Part shown: positions 1-5,988 of the stretch, piece by piece | Layout: each line of letters starts with the position of its first letter | Position numbering within the stretch: position 1 is the stretch's first letter | From: a virus | Lineage: Duplodnaviria; Heunggongvirae; Uroviricota; Caudoviricetes | DNA: 5,988 nt | Virus record (IMG/VR): IMGVR_UViG_2778260995_000009 | Location: 1 to 5,988 of that record | Direction: 5' to 3' (one strand) | Position numbers and translations under genes: made by a program | The notes under the pieces: model-generated | What the model was told of the DNA's origin: nothing | The model's input: only the letters and a program-made list of their open reading frames with translations | The model's database searches: none

Positions 1-582
1 GAATTATCGCTGGCTGAATTATCCTGGTGGGCGGTCTGCAATCAGGTGGCGGACGCGCTACCAGAGGCAGCATTACGCCGTTCGCTGGGGTTGCGTGCGG
101 AAAAAATCCGCTCAATGTACCGTGAAAGCGACATCGTACCGGGAGAGCAGACCGCCACCAGCATACTGAAGCAGCGCACAAAAAATATTGCGCCGTTGCC
201 TCACGCCCACCAGCAACAGAATCCACCACAGGAAAAGACGGTGGTCAGCATTGCCGTTGATCCGGAGTCACCGGCTCAGTATCTCCAGCGCCAGAAACCA
301 CAACGGGAAGAGATGCCTGTATACACGCGTTGGGTAAAAACGCAGAAATGCATGACGTGTGGCAATCAGGCAGATGATCCGCATCACATCATGGGTCATG
401 GACTGGGAGGGATGGGAACAAAGGCTGATGATTTGTTTGTTATTCCGCTGTGCCGTAAATGCCATAGCGAACTACACGCCGGGGTAAAAGATTTTGAAGA
501 AAAACACGGCAGCCAGCTGTTGTTGCTGATTCGTTTTTTAATGCACGCGAGAAATTCGGGTGTCCTGAAGTGGAAAGCATGA
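1..582 (+). CDS. NinG/DUF968-like phage protein with HNH-type zinc-finger motif (5' partial; frame is open from base 1)
   Basis: Frame 1 has no stop from position 1, so the gene begins upstream of the window. C-terminal motif CMTCG...DDPHHI...PLCRKCHSELH is a Cys/His HNH-like signature typical of DUF968 proteins found before rusA in lambdoid prophages. Stop TGA at 580-582 overlaps the rusA ATG region. Confidence 0.6.
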   Translation, partial: ELSLAELSWWAVCNQVADALPEAALRRSLGLRAEKIRSMYRESDIVPGEQTATSILKQRTKNIAPLPHAHQQQNPPQEKTVVSIAVDPESPAQYLQRQKPQREEMPVYTRWVKTQKCMTCGNQADDPHHIMGHGLGGMGTKADDLFVIPLCRKCHSELHAGVKDFEEKHGSQLLLLIRFLMHARNSGVLKWKA

Positions 583-948
583 ATGACTGAACGCATAGAA
601 TTTGTTTTGCCTTACCCGCCAACGGTGAACACTTACTGGCGACGTCGTGGCAGCACATATTTTGTATCAAAAGCCGGTGAGCGTTATCGCCGTGATGTGG
701 CGCTTATTGTTCGCCAGCAGCGACTGAAATTAAACCTGTCCGGACGGCTGGCGATAAAGATTATTGCAGAGCCACCGGATAAACGTCGTCGTGACCTGGA
801 CAATATCCTGAAAGCACCACTGGATGCGCTGACGCATGCCGGACTTCTCATAGACGACGAGCAGTTTGATGAAATCAATATTGTGCGCGGTCAGCTCGTT
901 CCTGGGGGGCGGCTGGGCGTGAAGATTTACAAAATTGAGAGTGAGTGA
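583..948 (+). CDS. rusA: Holliday junction resolvase RusA (crossover junction endodeoxyribonuclease)
   Basis: 121 aa, with LPYPPTVNTYWRRRG near the N-terminus, PDKRRRDLDN, DALTHAG, IDDEQ and GGRL matching my recollection of E. coli RusA (120 aa) including the acidic catalytic cluster. ATG at 583 immediately follows the upstream stop. Confidence 0.9.
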   Translation: MTERIEFVLPYPPTVNTYWRRRGSTYFVSKAGERYRRDVALIVRQQRLKLNLSGRLAIKIIAEPPDKRRRDLDNILKAPLDALTHAGLLIDDEQFDEINIVRGQLVPGGRLGVKIYKIESE

Positions 949-1502
949 TCGTAAATATGATATACCCGGAAATTACAGGCAAAAGCGGCGAGCATTTACG
1001 TCTAAAAACGCTGGAAGCCGTCTGGATCCAGGGGAAATTACGGATGTGGGGGCGTTGGTCGTACATAGGTGGTGGCAAACCAGGAAATATGTTCAATCAG
1101 TTGCTGGCATCCAAAACACTTACAAAAACTGCGATCAATGAAGCTCTGCGCAGAATAAAAAAATCAGGGATTGATAAAACTGAGCTGGAAGCGTTTTTGC
1201 GTGAGATGATCAACAGCAAGCAAAAGAGCGGGCTGGCTTATTGTACTGATGCCGAGGCGTTATGTATCGATCGGGTAATTAGTGAAGTGTTGGCAGAGCA
1301 TCCGGGATTGATTTGTATCCTCCGACAAAGATATGAAGGGCTGGGTATGAGCAAGCTGAAAATGGCAGAACAGTTAAAAAAGAATCACCCTGACTGGAGC
1401 CTGAAAACTTGTAGAAATCGCATTGATGTTTGGTTGGCGATGGCTGAAACCATGCTTTTCCTTCCAATGTGCGTGGCACTTCGGTGCTTTTCTGATAACT
1501 GA
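945..1502 (+). CDS. Late-gene antitermination protein Q (phage 82 / DLP12 QuuD-like family)
   Basis: Position directly after rusA. Motifs W..W near the N-terminus, CTDAEALCIDRV and a C-terminal helical region resemble QuuD-type Q proteins. Start is uncertain: GTG at 945 overlaps the rusA stop, alternative ATG at 957. Stop TGA at 1500-1502. Confidence 0.7.
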   Translation: MIVNMIYPEITGKSGEHLRLKTLEAVWIQGKLRMWGRWSYIGGGKPGNMFNQLLASKTLTKTAINEALRRIKKSGIDKTELEAFLREMINSKQKSGLAYCTDAEALCIDRVISEVLAEHPGLICILRQRYEGLGMSKLKMAEQLKKNHPDWSLKTCRNRIDVWLAMAETMLFLPMCVALRCFSDN

Positions 1503-1531
1503 TGATAGAAGTGCATCAGCTATCAATCTTG

Positions 1532-1560
1532 TTGACGTTCATCAAGGTCTGGACAATACT
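1532..1560 (+). promoter_or_regulatory. Sigma70-like promoter candidate: -35 TTGACG (1532-1537), 17-bp spacer, -10 AATACT (1555-1560)
   Basis: Hexamers and spacing read directly from sequence; lies between Q stop and the ATPase start. Could be the cassette's own promoter or the Q-dependent late promoter pR'. Confidence 0.3.
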
Positions 1561-1591
1561 TACGTTAAGTTCCAACATATGGAAGATAAGA

Positions 1592-2782
1592 ATGATATTT
1601 ACACGATTGAGATTTATCAATTTGTACGCTTTTGAGGATGCAGAGCTTAACCTGTCCTATCCAAGGAAACCTGTAAACATGCCTCTTGATGGGGAGTTTT
1701 TGGCTGGACGGCCTAAATTTTACTATAAAAAAGTCTGTATCATAACGGGGGGAAATGCTTCAGGTAAGACGTCACTAGGGCGAATTCTTTGTGGAATTCA
1801 GGTGTTTCTAAGAACCAAAGAGTTGCGGAGTAATCTGCGAGTGAATAATAAAAATAATGATGCTTCGTTTGAAGTGGACTTTGCTACGGAGGATCATTTT
1901 CATCATCGTTTGTATGTACGCTTTGCTACCAGTGAAGGCGGAGCGCACATAATCAAAGAAATTAAATATGGTTTTGTTCAAATAGCATTAAATGATTCTT
2001 GCCATAAAACCACAGAAAAACTGAATCAACTCTTTTCTGGAAGGGCCCCAGAAGATACAGAATATTTTTTTCAGGAACTAGCTACTGATAGCGAACCAGT
2101 TGTATTGGAGTTTTTCAAGCAACTTAAGTTTTTTGGTGGATGGTACTATTTGTTGTCTGAAACTAAAGAGAGTACCACTGCAATTTCAGGAATGAATAAA
2201 AATATTCTTGAAAGGATAATTCGCACTTTCGATTCAAGTATTATAGGAGTTACCGAGATGCTGGAGTCTGAAAGTGACGGGGATGAAAATAAATCATCTG
2301 CGGTTTATCTGATTAAATTTAAAAACTCTGATTCTCTTGTCGTTACCAGTAAAGGTGAAATAATTAACTCAGACCGTCTTTCTCGAGGAACATACGAGGC
2401 AGTGACGGTAGCGCATTTTATAAGCGCTATTATCTCTGATTGTGAAAGACTAGGTAAGCAATCTCTAATACCATCAATGACTTATTTTCTTGACGAGAAA
2501 TTGGCTTATACACATTCAGAGTTAGAGCGTATGATTGTGGCGCTGATTATATCTAATTTGAAAGAAAATACTCAGTTTTTCTATACAACGCATAACATGG
2601 ATATTTTTGAGTTGGATCTGCCTGTTCACTCGTTCATTTTTATTAAAAAAACGAAAGACTATTCGGAGTTTGTTGAAGCAAATTCAGTTGTTAAAAAAAA
2701 TGACCGTAGCATGCGAAACGCTGTTGAGAGAGATGTCTTTGGTGTCTTACCTGACACATCATTAGTATCGGAGCTACTCTGA
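1592..2782 (+). CDS. ABC/OLD-family P-loop ATPase (AAA_15/AAA_21-like), component A of a candidate two-gene defence cassette
   Basis: Walker A GGNASGKTS (codons at 1748-1771), Walker B YFLDE (2483-2497) and H-loop-like YTTHN (about 2581-2595) in the order expected for ABC-type ATPases. N-terminus MIFTRLRFINLYAF fits the usual start of this family. GGAAG Shine-Dalgarno at 1581-1585. The ORF track's 1502 start adds 30 implausible hydrophobic residues overlapping the promoter-like element. Gene is markedly AT-rich. Confidence 0.8.
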   Translation: MIFTRLRFINLYAFEDAELNLSYPRKPVNMPLDGEFLAGRPKFYYKKVCIITGGNASGKTSLGRILCGIQVFLRTKELRSNLRVNNKNNDASFEVDFATEDHFHHRLYVRFATSEGGAHIIKEIKYGFVQIALNDSCHKTTEKLNQLFSGRAPEDTEYFFQELATDSEPVVLEFFKQLKFFGGWYYLLSETKESTTAISGMNKNILERIIRTFDSSIIGVTEMLESESDGDENKSSAVYLIKFKNSDSLVVTSKGEIINSDRLSRGTYEAVTVAHFISAIISDCERLGKQSLIPSMTYFLDEKLAYTHSELERMIVALIISNLKENTQFFYTTHNMDIFELDLPVHSFIFIKKTKDYSEFVEANSVVKKNDRSMRNAVERDVFGVLPDTSLVSELL

Positions 2783-3315
2783 TGGCGGGGTTGTCTAAAA
2801 TAAGAATAATTTTTGTCGAAGGTGAAACAGAAAACTCTCTTTTTCTGAAGATGAAACAACAGAGAGTTATTGATGCCAAATCAATTGTAAAAAGAAACTT
2901 TTGGCAAGAGAGCATAAGAAATTATGCGATTACTATTCCGAAGGGAAGTGATATACTAATTGTCTTTGATAGTGATGAAGTGGAGCAATCTGCAAGATTC
3001 ATTGAAAATGTAAAGTTCCTTAAAAACAGAGGGCATAAAGTTTATCTTTTGCAGCAGAAAAGAAATTTTGAGGAGGAGTTGGCCTGGTGTTGCGGAATTC
3101 CTGTAAAAAAACTAATTGCTGGGTTCTGTGCAAAAAAAACATCGGGTATAAATGATTTCAAGAGAGATTTTATTGCTTGTAACAATCAACTTTCAAAGTT
3201 ACTGAAAATGGGCATGCAGGAAACTAAGTGGTTTACAAGAGATTTACATGCTGTATTGGAGCCTGTTGCAAGTTTTAAGTCATCTTTTTCTAAACATTTC
3301 AGGTTAACAAGATGA
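2782..3315 (+). CDS. Small TOPRIM-like protein (RloB/DUF4276/AriB-like nuclease candidate), component B of the defence cassette
   Basis: 177 aa. N-terminal IIFVEGETE (conserved Glu codons at 2818-2820 and 2824-2826) followed by ILIVFDSDE (DxD) matches the TOPRIM Glu plus DxD metal-binding arrangement. Start ATG overlaps the ATPase stop (TGATGG at 2780-2785); GGAG Shine-Dalgarno at 2770-2773. AT-rich like the ATPase. Confidence 0.7.
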   Translation: MAGLSKIRIIFVEGETENSLFLKMKQQRVIDAKSIVKRNFWQESIRNYAITIPKGSDILIVFDSDEVEQSARFIENVKFLKNRGHKVYLLQQKRNFEEELAWCCGIPVKKLIAGFCAKKTSGINDFKRDFIACNNQLSKLLKMGMQETKWFTRDLHAVLEPVASFKSSFSKHFRLTR

Positions 3316-3597
3316 TTTATTTTCTTTTTTGTTCAGCTGATTGTTTTTGTTTGTAAAATGTCTTGATTTTTTGCCAATAAACTGTTTCAATCCAGCTACG
3401 CTTCGCAAAGCTGTACCGCGAGGCGAATAGCAGACATGGACACCTGAAAGAATCCGCTTTATGCGAGTTTTTTTATGCCTGAAAAACGGCACAGAACATT
3501 AAACGCGCTGGTAGTTGTGAATACTGGTCTTTCAGCTTGCTGGCTTTTTCGACAAGAGGTATTGGTATATCACGTTAACCAGAAAAGGGGAAAAGGC

Positions 3598-3795
3598 ATG
3601 CTAAAACAGCAGGATATGACCGAAACCGCCAGAGTGGTGTTTAATGAATTAAGCGTCACCGAACCGGCGACCGTCGGGGAAATTGCGCAGAATACTTACC
3701 TTTCACGCGAACGCTGCCAGTTAATACTGACTCAGCTTGTTATGGCGGGTCTGGCAGATTATCAGTTCGGTTGTTACAGACGCCTTCCTCAGTGA
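3598..3795 (+). CDS. Small hypothetical protein (65 aa) with predicted helix-turn-helix / winged-helix character
   Basis: ATG at 3598 preceded by purine-rich Shine-Dalgarno AAAAGGGGAAAAGG. Segment TVGEIAQNTYLSRERCQLILTQLVMAGLA looks like an HTH recognition unit. The track's longer ORF from 3475 has no RBS and an implausible N-terminus. Fold assignment is inference only. Confidence 0.45.
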   Translation: MLKQQDMTETARVVFNELSVTEPATVGEIAQNTYLSRERCQLILTQLVMAGLADYQFGCYRRLPQ

Positions 3796-3850
3796 AGGTT
3801 TTTTAATTTGTGGTAATGGGCGGCTGGTGGGTGTTAGCGGCACCTGCCAG

Positions 3851-3899
3851 CCATCTGCTCATGCGTTGGGGTCACAAGCAAACCTCAGGCCCATCTGCT
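3851..3899 (+). repeat. Two direct repeats CCATCTGCT (3851-3859 and 3891-3899), 40-bp period, each followed by (A)TGCG
   Basis: Read directly from sequence; located in the intergenic region between the small HTH gene and the methyltransferase start, so possibly operator-like sites. Confidence 0.3.
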
Positions 3900-3945
3900 T
3901 TGCGCAAAAGCGGTATGAGCCTATCAGAGAAGTGCTTATTGATCT

Positions 3946-4995
3946 ATGGCCAATACTGTAAAAATATCCAGTTGTGAGTTAATCAACGCTGATTGCCTGG
4001 AATTTATCCAGACCTTACCGGAAAATTCTGTCGATCTGATAGTCACAGACCCGCCATACTTTAAAGTGAAGCCCGAGGGCTGGGATAACCAGTGGGAGGG
4101 CGACGATGATTACCTGAAATGGCTGGACCAGTGTCTGGCGCAGTTCTGGCGGGTACTGAAGCCTACCGGAAGTCTTTACCTGTTCTGTGGTCATCGCCTG
4201 GCATCTGACACCGAAATCATGATGCGTGAGCGCTTTAATGTGCTGAACCACATTATCTGGGCGAAGCCGTCCGGACGCTGGAACGGGTGCAATAAGGAAA
4301 GTCTGCGGGCGTATTTTCCGGCAACAGAGCGCATTCTGTTTGCAGAACATTATCAGGGACCGTATCGCCCGAAAGATGATGGCTATGTGGCACAGGGGCG
4401 CGAGCTAAAACAGCACGTCATGGCCCCGCTGATTTCTTACTTTCGTGATGCGCGTAAATCACTGGGAATAACGTCAAAACAGATAGCGGAAGCCACCGGA
4501 AAGAAAAACATGGCTTCGCACTGGTTTGGTACCAGTCAGTGGCAGTTACCGAACGAGGGTGATTACAACAAATTGCAGGCGTTGTTTGCGCGTGTTGCGG
4601 CAGAAAAACATCAGCGCGGGGAACTGGAAAAGCCACACCACCAGCTGGTCAGCACATACAGTGAGCTGAACCGGCAGTATACGGAACTGCTGAGTGAATA
4701 TAAAAATTTGCGGCGGTATTTCGGTGTGACGGCGCAGGTTCCGTACACCGATGTCTGGACGCATAAACCGGTGCAGTACTATCCAGGGAAACATCCGTGC
4801 GAAAAACCGGCAGAAATGCTGCAGCAGATAATCAACGCGAGCAGTCGTCCGGGAGACCTGGTTGCAGATTTTTTTATGGGTTCAGGTTCAACGGTAAAAG
4901 CGGCGATGGCACTGGGGCGTTGTGCGATTGGTGTTGAGCTGGAGACAGGACGTTTTGAACAGACAGTCAGGGAAGTTCAGGATTTAATCGTTTGA
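3946..4995 (+). CDS. DNA N6-adenine methyltransferase (beta-class, motif IV before motif I), phage orphan-type
   Basis: DPPY catalytic motif near the N-terminus (VTDPPYF) and FxGxG SAM-binding motif near the C-terminus (DFFMGSGST). This order and spacing is typical of phage-encoded N6A methyltransferases. An in-frame TGA immediately upstream fixes the start at 3946. Confidence 0.85.
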   Translation: MANTVKISSCELINADCLEFIQTLPENSVDLIVTDPPYFKVKPEGWDNQWEGDDDYLKWLDQCLAQFWRVLKPTGSLYLFCGHRLASDTEIMMRERFNVLNHIIWAKPSGRWNGCNKESLRAYFPATERILFAEHYQGPYRPKDDGYVAQGRELKQHVMAPLISYFRDARKSLGITSKQIAEATGKKNMASHWFGTSQWQLPNEGDYNKLQALFARVAAEKHQRGELEKPHHQLVSTYSELNRQYTELLSEYKNLRRYFGVTAQVPYTDVWTHKPVQYYPGKHPCEKPAEMLQQIINASSRPGDLVADFFMGSGSTVKAAMALGRCAIGVELETGRFEQTVREVQDLIV

Positions 4996-5044
4996 AACGG
5001 ATGAGATTGCAGAATTAATTACGCACCATTATTATTCTGCTCCC

Positions 5045-5120
5045 GGCCCTTTAGCTCAGTGGTGAGAGCGAGCGACTCATAATCGCCAGGTCGCTGGTTC
5101 AAATCCAGCAAGGGCCACCA
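5045..5120 (+). tRNA. ileZ: tRNA-Ile2 (anticodon CAU, lysidine type; ileZ-like), 76 nt with encoded CCA
   Basis: Hand-folded cloverleaf: acceptor GGCCCTT/AAGGGCC, D arm GCTC/GAGC, anticodon loop CTCATAA (CAT at 5078-5080), T arm GCTGG-TTCAAAT-CCAGC. Resembles E. coli ileX/ileY. CAU could also be Met; Ile2 is inferred from similarity. Confidence 0.85.
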
Positions 5121-5127
5121 TCACATA

Positions 5128-5204
5128 CCGCCATTAGCTCATCAGGATAGAGCGCCAGCCTTCGAAGCTGGTTGCGCGGGGTTCGAGTCCTCGATGGCGG
5201 TCCA
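5128..5204 (+). tRNA. argN: tRNA-Arg (anticodon UCG), 77 nt with encoded CCA
   Basis: Hand-folded: acceptor CCGCCAT/ATGGCGG, anticodon stem CCAGC/GCTGG with loop CTTCGAA (TCG at 5162-5164), T arm CGGGG-TTCGAGT-CCTCG. The C1-G72 start is unusual, so the 5' end could be off by 1-2 nt. Gene symbol assigned by position only. Confidence 0.75.
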
Positions 5205-5217
5205 TTATCTGTACCCT

Positions 5218-5294
5218 GCGTTGTTAGCTCAGCCGGACAGAGCAATTGCCTTCTAAGCAATCGGTCACTGGTTCGAATCCAGTACAACGCGCCA
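5218..5294 (+). tRNA. argO: tRNA-Arg (anticodon UCU), 77 nt with encoded CCA
   Basis: Hand-folded: acceptor GCGTTGT/ACAACGC, anticodon stem ATTGC/GCAAT with loop CTTCTAA (TCT at 5252-5254), T arm ACTGG-TTCGAAT-CCAGT. Gene symbol assigned by position only. Confidence 0.8.
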
Positions 5295-5444
5295 CGCTTA
5301 TTTTTCCAGGCTCGCTTTGGCGGGTCTTTTTCATATCCGCGTCACGTCAGGCGCACATCAAACAAACACAGAATCTTTCAGGGGCGGGGTAGTCAGTGTG
5401 ACGTTCTCTGGAGACCTGTCACTTCCGGGGATAGGTGTTTTTAC

Positions 5445-5468
5445 GGGCTGCTGGTGGCCCTTTTTTAT
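5445..5468 (+). terminator. Possible intrinsic terminator: GGGC...GCCC short stem followed by TTTTTTATTT
   Basis: GGGCTGCTGGTGGCCC (5445-5460) then a T-run at 5461-5470. The stem is only about 4 bp, so this is weak. Confidence 0.25.
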
Positions 5469-5485
5469 TTACAGGAGAAAGAAGT

Positions 5486-5878
5486 ATGTCTGAACCCTTA
5501 TCCGGTTCCGGTACGGCTGCGGCGCTCGGCGGGGCGACGGTATTCGGGCTGTTTACCGGAACGGATTTCGGGATTGTGTTTGGTGCATTCGCCGGGGCGT
5601 TGTTCGTGGCCACGATGCCGCAGGCGTTTTCAGGCTGGCGAGTGGCAGCACATTTTCTGGTGTCATTTATTGTTGGCGTGCTGGGTGCACGTGCGTTGTC
5701 AGCCTGGGTTGCATCAAAAACAGGTTATGACGGTACATCGGCGGATGCACTGTGTGCGGTGCTGGTGTCAGTGATGTCGGTAAAGATTCTGGCATTCATC
5801 CACCAGCAGGATATTGCAGCGCTGATATCCGGTTTGTTCTCCCGCCTGCGGAGTGGAGGTGGTGGCAATGCCAGATAA
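5486..5878 (+). CDS. Hypothetical Gly/Ala-rich membrane protein, possible holin-like lysis protein
   Basis: ATG at 5486 with strong Shine-Dalgarno AGGAGA (5473-5478). Several hydrophobic Gly/Ala-rich stretches (GGATVFGLFTG, IVFGAFAGALFVA, FLVSFIVGVLGA). Sits where lambdoid phages place lysis genes. No specific family recognised. Confidence 0.45.
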   Translation: MSEPLSGSGTAAALGGATVFGLFTGTDFGIVFGAFAGALFVATMPQAFSGWRVAAHFLVSFIVGVLGARALSAWVASKTGYDGTSADALCAVLVSVMSVKILAFIHQQDIAALISGLFSRLRSGGGGNAR

Positions 5879-5988
5879 CCTTTCTGAATTACTGAACGTG
5901 GCGTTATGCACGGTTATCGTGCTGACGCTCTTTTTTTATCGTCGCCGTGATTCCAGACATAAACCGCTGGTGTCATGGCTGGCCTGGC
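5866..5988 (+). CDS. Small hypothetical membrane protein (3' partial, runs off window), start overlapping upstream stop
   Basis: ATG at 5866 overlaps the preceding gene's 3' end (stop TAA 5876-5878). Hydrophobic stretch VALCTVIVLTLFFY followed by RRRDSRHK fits a single-pass membrane topology. Not in the ORF track because it is truncated. Confidence 0.3.

Follow-up and report, generated by a model that had tools for sequence, protein, structure and literature searches.

A mobile AT-rich ATPase–TOPRIM gene pair beside the Q gene of an Escherichia coli lambdoid prophage, a probable AbiL-like defence cassette

In a 5,988-nucleotide (nt) stretch of viral DNA (Caudoviricetes; IMG/VR record IMGVR_UViG_2778260995_000009, positions 1 to 5,988; hereafter the window), we found an AT-rich two-gene cassette directly downstream of the gene for the antiterminator Q. 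The window covers the late-regulatory region of an Escherichia coli lambdoid prophage with a backbone of the Stx-phage-like type, and matches E. coli prophages at 97-99% identity (megablast). The cassette encodes an ABC ATPase of 396 amino acids (aa) at 1592..2782 and a small TOPRIM-type protein of 177 aa at 2782..3315, both on the + strand. Comparison of copies indicates that ~1528-3315 is a self-contained, horizontally mobile unit, bordered by unique junction DNA at 1503-1527 and 3316-3361, and that it is best filed, as a prophage moron, in the AbiL-like branch of the ABC-ATPase and TOPRIM systems. By analogy with known members, the pair probably acts as an abortive anti-phage defence of the AbiL/PARIS kind, with the ATPase as sensor and the TOPRIM protein as effector. 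The specific target of the putative nuclease is proposed with much lower confidence than this defence logic.

Composition, mobility and junctions of the cassette

The first-pass annotation, made from the letters of the window only, had described an AT-rich island beginning at the Q stop codon and ending near 3400, and the composition analysis bore this out. In 200-nt windows, G+C was 0.32-0.40 from ~1500 to 3400 and 0.45-0.56 on both sides. The segment 1503-3361 held 667 G+C in 1859 nt (35.9%), as compared with 2088/4129 (50.6%) elsewhere (chi2 = 110.8, p = 7e-26), and a two-breakpoint maximum-likelihood fit placed the island at 1488-3391 (35.7% vs 50.8% G+C), beating a uniform model by 60.9 log-likelihood units. 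Two hand counts given in the annotation proved exact (15/60 G+C in 2641-2700 and 29/60 in 4021-4080). The left edge is less sharp than the annotation had it: Q has only 45% G+C, and the likelihood hardly varies between ~1260 and 1570.

AT-richness of this kind might be intrinsic to the coding sequences, through their amino acids, or arise by chance, and a somewhat lower G+C at second codon positions (0.33-0.34 in the cassette genes vs 0.39-0.55) would agree with an intrinsic cause. However, the largest drop was at the synonymous third positions, where the island genes have 0.32 and 0.31 and the six flanking genes 0.48-0.56 (chi2 = 65.7, p = 5e-16), so that the codon-level difference anticipated by the annotation was indeed significant. 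The non-coding segments 1503-1591 and 3316-3361 are likewise AT-rich. Since the drop is strongest at third positions and is also present in the non-coding flanks, it is not an amino-acid effect. An intrinsic or chance origin is effectively refuted by alleles that lack the island, and the multiple contexts of the cassette prove its mobility; we give that origin next to no weight.

The foreign origin claimed in the annotation, that of a horizontally acquired moron, was supported by empty-site alleles, by the same pair in at least five unrelated contexts, and by an AT-rich composition relative to every host. Empty-site sister prophages include AST19 (L001) and E2528-C1 (L004) and many more, and hundreds of near-identical prophages are without the cassette. 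The exact allele was present in 7 of 5426 complete E. coli genomes, always after Q, and 10 further E. coli genomes carried diverged copies of 64-69% nucleotide identity. Diverged copies were located in the nin region upstream of DUF1367-DUF1364-Q (L005), between potC, which marks the attachment side, and the int gene of a different lambdoid prophage (L006, L007, L012-L017), in an islet flanked by ttcA-like and usp genes (L018), next to the gene for a 2792-aa LPD/MuF polyvalent protein (L019-L022), in an Erwinia chromosomal islet (L023), and at an Acinetobacter prophage end next to a lysozyme gene (L008-L011). In the copies beside the polyvalent protein (5637-10534, minus strand), the 65%-identical cassette lies tail-to-tail with the LPD/MuF gene and near Ead/Ea22-DUF551 early genes.

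In every context examined, the ATPase gene was followed directly by the small gene. The cassette had 31-39% G+C against 47-50% around it in E. coli, and 31% against 39-44% in Acinetobacter; host-like composition in relatives, which the annotation had named as evidence against acquisition, was not seen. Homology between copies ran from ~5-25 nt upstream of a promoter-like element, TTGACG-N17-(A/G)ATACT, to the stop codon of the small gene, and 3316-3361 was unrelated to the sequence 3' of the cassette in other contexts. The plasmid collection gave no match to the island, and the sole match in the phage collection was a 116-nt patch in an Acinetobacter phage. The cassette thus has what is expected of a prophage moron: it is missing from close relatives, differs in G+C (36% vs 51%) and has a conserved promoter-like element.

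Alignment to relatives without the insert, a check proposed in the annotation, defined the empty-site junction. From the Q stop to the point where homology resumes there are 76 nt in the empty alleles (L001 2497-2572) and 1859 nt in the window; a clean insertion was not borne out, as these 76 nt were replaced. Compared with L001, the window was 99.3% identical over 3362-5988, and the right edge was sharp, with homology to empty-site prophages resuming at 3362. On the left, 1-1447 aligned at 91.5%. Identity in 50-nt bins was ~100% from 250 to 1100; beyond that, the bins up to the Q stop gave 90, 80, 74, 70, 82, 72, 58 and 54%. Against L002 (EC24), which carries the cassette but has another right flank, identity was 98.9% over 100-1100, 99.5% over both 1101-1502 and 1503-3361, and 93.2% over 3362-5331. 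From this pattern towards L001 and L002, the window is a mosaic.

The 3' part of Q (1101-1502) was 99.5-100% identical to that of other cassette-bearing prophages. Among the 5426 E. coli genomes, 1470-1527 was matched by the 7 cassette carriers only, the left spacer (1503..1527, +) being confined to cassette-bearing prophages, and the sequence common to independent cassettes begins at ~1528. These alignments indicate that over ~1101-1502 the window carries a divergent Q allele, found only with the cassette and inherited together with it, and that the exchanged tract extends from a crossover inside Q at ~1100-1150 to 3361/3362. Placement of the insertion exactly at the Q stop therefore fits the composition step but not the recombination history, in which the tract starts inside Q and cassette DNA starts at ~1528. 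The insertion has neither truncated nor fused Q, whose C-terminus, though divergent, can be aligned to other DUF1133 Q proteins. The short direct repeats suggested as a further check were not found, none longer than 6 nt flanking the cassette, so there is no transposition signature and transposition was rejected. By sequence comparison, the cassette probably arrived via homologous or illegitimate recombination between lambdoid phages. In the scenario that we propose, the exchange would have been homologous recombination with another lambdoid phage, with crossovers inside Q at ~1100-1150 and at the block of the candidate late promoter pR' (3362).

The two proteins and their probable function

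The 396-aa protein matched the PADLOC model of AbiLi at 7.6e-26 (residues 26-420). Its weaker PADLOC matches were AriA (1.5e-7 and 2e-5), mad3 (5e-11, limited to residues 76-140 in the Walker A region) and, weakly, PtuA. Pfam AAA_15, AAA_21 and SMC_N all scored below their cut-offs (AAA_15 29.3 vs a cut-off of 32.1). The Walker A motif GxNxSGKT, a signature-like motif RLSRGT, Walker B D301-E302 and H334 were invariant across 40 homologues with identities as low as 35%. The AlphaFold (AF2) model had a mean predicted local distance difference test score (pLDDT) of 85.9 and no long coiled-coil. Foldseek matched it at E ~1e-9 to Rad50, SMC heads, PtuA (Septu/retron) and OLD; no AriA structure was among its top 50 matches. 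The protein belongs to PHROG 5836, which is annotated 'unknown function'.

The small protein had no Pfam match, NCBIfam had no family for either protein, and searches of PDB sequences with both proteins and both family profiles gave no meaningful match. A profile search recovered 607 clusters (50% identity) of proteins of ~165-185 aa. In 45 sequences with 29% mean column identity, E13, G14, E17, D63, D65, E97, E99 and K127 were invariant or at least 90% conserved. On sequence evidence, these residues make up the TOPRIM Glu and DxD together with an extra E(i+4), a downstream Glu and a Lys, that is, the OLD-type catalytic set. Their order matches that of the catalytic residues of class 2 OLD from Burkholderia (BpOLD), whose two-metal site is formed by E400, E404, D455, D457, E508 and K562 (PMC6755086).

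Profile matches of the small protein were weaker than those of the ATPase. The window protein matched PADLOC AbiLii marginally (E = 0.0015, 17 bits), and AbiLii was also matched by 15 of 18 close and 23 of 45 distant relatives (best 2.8e-6). Pfam RloB was matched by 5 of the 18 (best 7e-4), a few relatives matched OLD-like_TOPRIM, and mad4 was matched by 1 of the 18 at 0.044. The listed matches of the 18 and of the 45 relatives (the 25 most-matched families, E <= 1 and E <= 0.01) did not include DUF4435 (PF14491). The longest structural alignments were to GajA (137 residues) and class 2 OLD (126 residues), at 16% identity, and DnaG primases were present among the fold matches. The gene pair named in the annotation is real, and its 'TOPRIM' label comes from motifs and weak profile matches, with no Pfam match to the window protein. 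Neither the protein accession nor the PHROG number turned up in the literature searched.

Published work groups AbiL, PARIS and MADS3-4 as split ABC-ATPase and TOPRIM defence systems (PMC11464382; FEMS review; OLD preprint). The ATPase of PARIS is a scaffold that, on sensing a phage protein, frees the TOPRIM nuclease to cleave tRNA-Lys. By analogy with these systems, the cassette would be expressed from its own promoter in the lysogen, its transcripts probably ending at a hairpin of the phage terminator tR', and the AbiLi-like ATPase would hold the AbiLii-like TOPRIM-type nuclease inactive in a complex. A superinfecting phage would supply the trigger for ATPase-dependent release or activation of the nuclease. 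The freed enzyme would then cut host or phage nucleic acid, most likely tRNA by analogy with PARIS AriB and with P2 OLD, which was recently reported as a tRNase, although DNA is possible. Infection would be aborted and the lysogen population protected.

Three other functions were weighed against this defence reading, and none fits the distribution of the cassette as well. The pair might be a toxin-antitoxin or addiction module, with the TOPRIM protein as toxin and the ATPase as antitoxin, which stabilises the prophage or islet and has no part in defence. The two-gene, translationally coupled layout would suit such a module, as would the annotation of AAA_21 as an 'AbiEii toxin, type IV TA' family, the type II toxin-antitoxin behaviour of PARIS itself, and the presence of the cassette in small chromosomal islets without an intact phage. 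These properties are nevertheless compatible with defence, since most toxin-antitoxin-like Abi modules defend; moreover, the cassette prefers classic prophage moron and defence locations, and no profile matches better than that of an abortive-infection system. We consider a pure addiction role unlikely.

A second alternative makes the pair an RloA/RloB-like accessory of restriction-modification and has it act together with the DNA methyltransferase encoded 630 nt downstream (3946-4995). The weak RloB matches of 5 of 18 relatives ('restriction-linked ORF' family), the partial match of the ATPase to mad3 of the methylation-associated MADS system, and the nearness of a type II-like methyltransferase all agree with it. 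Yet this methyltransferase is part of the backbone, with 95-99% identity in empty-site prophages and in cassette-free Stx phages, the cassette occurs elsewhere without a methyltransferase nearby, and the mad3 match is limited to the Walker A region. An accessory role in restriction-modification thus seems very improbable.

The genes could also serve lytic development of the phage, in Rad50/TOPRIM-like DNA processing or in a primase-like role, through read-through from pR. In line with this, they follow Q immediately and co-oriented within the delayed-early operon, the ATPase resembles Rad50/SbcC heads, and DnaG primases are among the fold matches of the small protein. Against it, the pair is dispensable, as the many near-identical cassette-free prophages illustrate, and copies are not confined to operons, some lying at att-int junctions and others in non-phage islets; the cassette has its own conserved promoter-like element, and its ATPase is without a long coiled-coil. 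A lytic function appears as remote as the restriction-linked one.

Expression signals and the surrounding late region

The annotation had credited the pair with its own upstream region, and this was supported by the promoter-like element TTGACG-N17-(A/G)ATACT, which accompanies the cassette in six enterobacterial copies from six contexts. Both hexamers and the 17-nt spacing are kept while the spacer sequence varies. In the window the element (TTGACG, 17 nt, AATACT; 1532..1560, +) scored 9/12 in a consensus scan and is a putative cassette-borne sigma-70 promoter, conservation being the best available evidence for it. Downstream of it, an inverted repeat, TTCCA-N5-TGGAA (1570..1584, +), overlaps the Shine-Dalgarno region of the ATPase gene and is conserved in 5 enterobacterial cassettes. 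The hairpin predicted from this repeat has little stability (-3.8 to -4.8 kcal/mol, z -0.3 to -1.4), and the repeat might serve as an operator or as a translational attenuator.

The true start of the ATPase gene is the ATG at 1592, as in RefSeq and in nearly all homologues, and the conservation upstream of it in the alignment of independent cassettes is non-coding. A mechanical open reading frame (ORF) starting at 1502 and overlapping the Q stop was accordingly discarded as an artefact. The start of the small gene overlaps the ATPase stop by one base (TGATG), which suggests that the two genes are translationally coupled. The T-rich tail of the island (3316..3361, +; 21.7% G+C) ends at the right junction, and no convincing terminator hairpin was found in 3300-3365 (z = -0.35).

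Immediately after this junction lies the candidate late promoter pR' (TTGATT, 17 nt, TTCAAT; 3363..3391, +), followed by a tR'-like intrinsic terminator with an A-tract, a hairpin and a T-run (3445..3476, +); both belong to the backbone and not to the cassette. The pattern TTGnnT-N17-TTCAAT was conserved in five DUF1133-Q prophages, in one of which (L024) Q stops 5 nt before the equivalent of window position 3379. The block 3362-3427 accompanies the DUF1133 Q type even when the downstream lysis cassette differs (L026), and Stx phages with other Q types have sequence in common only from the hairpin at ~3451 onward. From this conservation with the Q type, and the restriction of the Stx-phage similarity to ~3451 onward, we assign 3363-3391 as a putative Q-cognate late promoter pR', cross-phage conservation being the sole basis, and 3445-3476 as a putative tR'. 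A consensus promoter scan of the empty allele found no pR', because its -10 hexamer has no A at position 2.

The tR'-like hairpin is predicted to fold at -11.7 kcal/mol in the window and at -20.3 in the empty allele; substitutions in its stem at 3453 and 3466 (C>T, G>A) are not compensatory and are lacking in L001-L004. Located in the spacer between Q and pR', the cassette would leave Q and pR' intact and would itself lie outside Q-dependent control. Its transcription could come from its own promoter in the lysogen and from pR read-through during lytic growth, and tR' may end its transcripts. In lambdoid prophages with a DUF1133 Q, on a backbone shared with Stx phages, the spacer from Q to the candidate pR' is hereby documented as a cargo site, and arrival of cargo by recombination inside Q bears on how late-region cargo, toxins included, is shuffled among these phages.

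Upstream of the cassette, the window carries a DUF968/HNH-like gene (46-582), rusA (583-948) and the Q gene (945..1502, +), whose product matches Pfam DUF1133 at 8.4e-99, Phage_antitermQ at 1.8e-7 and PHROG 753. Downstream are a small winged-helix-turn-helix-like ORF (3598-3795), the type II-like DNA methyltransferase gene, three tRNA genes (5045-5294), which were the only Rfam matches over the window, and a holin gene (5435-5878). From ~3451 downstream the sequence is common to phiP27 and many Stx2 phages. The small ORF was mechanically called as 106 aa at 3475-3795; the RefSeq gene has 65 aa (3598-3795; PHROG 331, 'unknown function'). A TrmB-like winged-helix match to the longer ORF was sub-threshold, and the phiP27 equivalent is annotated as a TrmB-family regulator.

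The rare codons ATA, AGA, AGG and CGA amount to 66 per 1000 in the cassette (1592-3315) and 26 per 1000 in backbone genes, and the prophage tRNAs, with anticodons CAU (tRNA-Ile in RefSeq), UCG and UCU, would decode them. This link may be coincidental, since cassette-free relatives carry the same tRNAs. A second variable cargo site is present between the tRNA genes and the holin gene (window 5410-5435), where sister prophages have a TerB-family gene and a DUF3927 gene over ~665 nt (L003 6418-7084; L004 4684-5258) and the window has neither. L003 (NZ_JBRERL010000002.1) is the closest match to the window, with 99.2% identity over 5.4 kb and 100% in the cassette. Its record carries the label of a 261-kb plasmid, although the matching sequence is that of a lambdoid prophage late region; a phage-plasmid, a prophage integrated into a large plasmid, or a problem of assembly or labelling could each account for this.

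Comparison with known systems

To a specialist, an AbiL-like prophage moron will be unsurprising. The cassette is useful in being compact and naturally delimited (promoter to stop codon, ~1.8 kb) and in belonging to a branch with poor profile coverage, of which AbiL is the founding member. Its small subunit appears to be a minimal TOPRIM protein in which the OLD-type catalytic set is complete; as Pfam does not detect it, prophage surveys probably under-count systems of this kind. It is doubtful, though conceivable, that the 177-aa family and its ~400-aa ATPase form a distinct minimal class of split OLD-like immune systems with its own trigger and target. The small protein of such a system might be a tRNase, with the prophage tRNA genes at 5045-5294 making up for the collateral damage that it does to the carrier phage. 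If this were true, the site upstream of pR' would let the lysogen express the cassette without disturbing Q-dependent late control.

The cassette is distantly similar to AbiL (AbiLi/AbiLii of the Lactococcus lactis plasmid pND861; PADLOC model). Both have an AAA_15/21-type ABC ATPase gene first and a gene for a smaller protein second, which in the cassette is putatively RloB/TOPRIM-like, and both reside on mobile elements. The cassette showed the two-gene order and co-inheritance of AbiL, an ATPase that matches AbiLi and has intact hydrolysis motifs, and small-protein relatives that mostly match AbiLii. The two differ in host, a lactococcal plasmid in one case and an enterobacterial lambdoid prophage in the other, and the window small protein has marginal similarity to AbiLii and is missed by the RloB model.

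PARIS (AriA/AriB, class 4 OLD-like) likewise consists of a split ABC ATPase and TOPRIM nuclease and is frequently phage- or satellite-borne, and its logic of a sensor-scaffold and a released nuclease is the best mechanistic template for the cassette. In contrast, AriB is a ~35 kDa protein with DUF4435, a family that was not among the 25 most-matched ones of the small-protein relatives, and the 177-aa protein is about half its size; AriA is ~55 kDa as compared with 396 aa for the cassette ATPase, and is not among the top structural matches. The OLD nucleases (P2 Old, GajA of Gabija and class 2 Burkholderia OLD) also combine an ABC ATPase with a TOPRIM domain bearing E, E(i+4), DxD, E and Lys. 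In OLD classes 1-3 the two parts are fused, whereas the cassette has two separate ORFs. MADS (mad1-8) is a multi-gene mad locus that includes mad3/mad4 and a methyltransferase; no such locus surrounds the cassette, its mad3 match is partial, and the nearby methyltransferase is backbone.

With regard to location, a parallel exists with the lysogenic-conversion cargo that lambdoid prophages carry between Q and the lysis genes, such as stx downstream of Q-pR'-tR' in Stx phages. Both are cargo of foreign composition with their own promoter in the late-regulatory region, and the backbone of the window is the Stx-phage-like module of Q, methyltransferase, tRNA and holin genes. The stx cargo encodes a toxin and lies downstream of tR', whereas the cassette lies upstream of the candidate pR', would be free of Q control, and encodes a putative defence.

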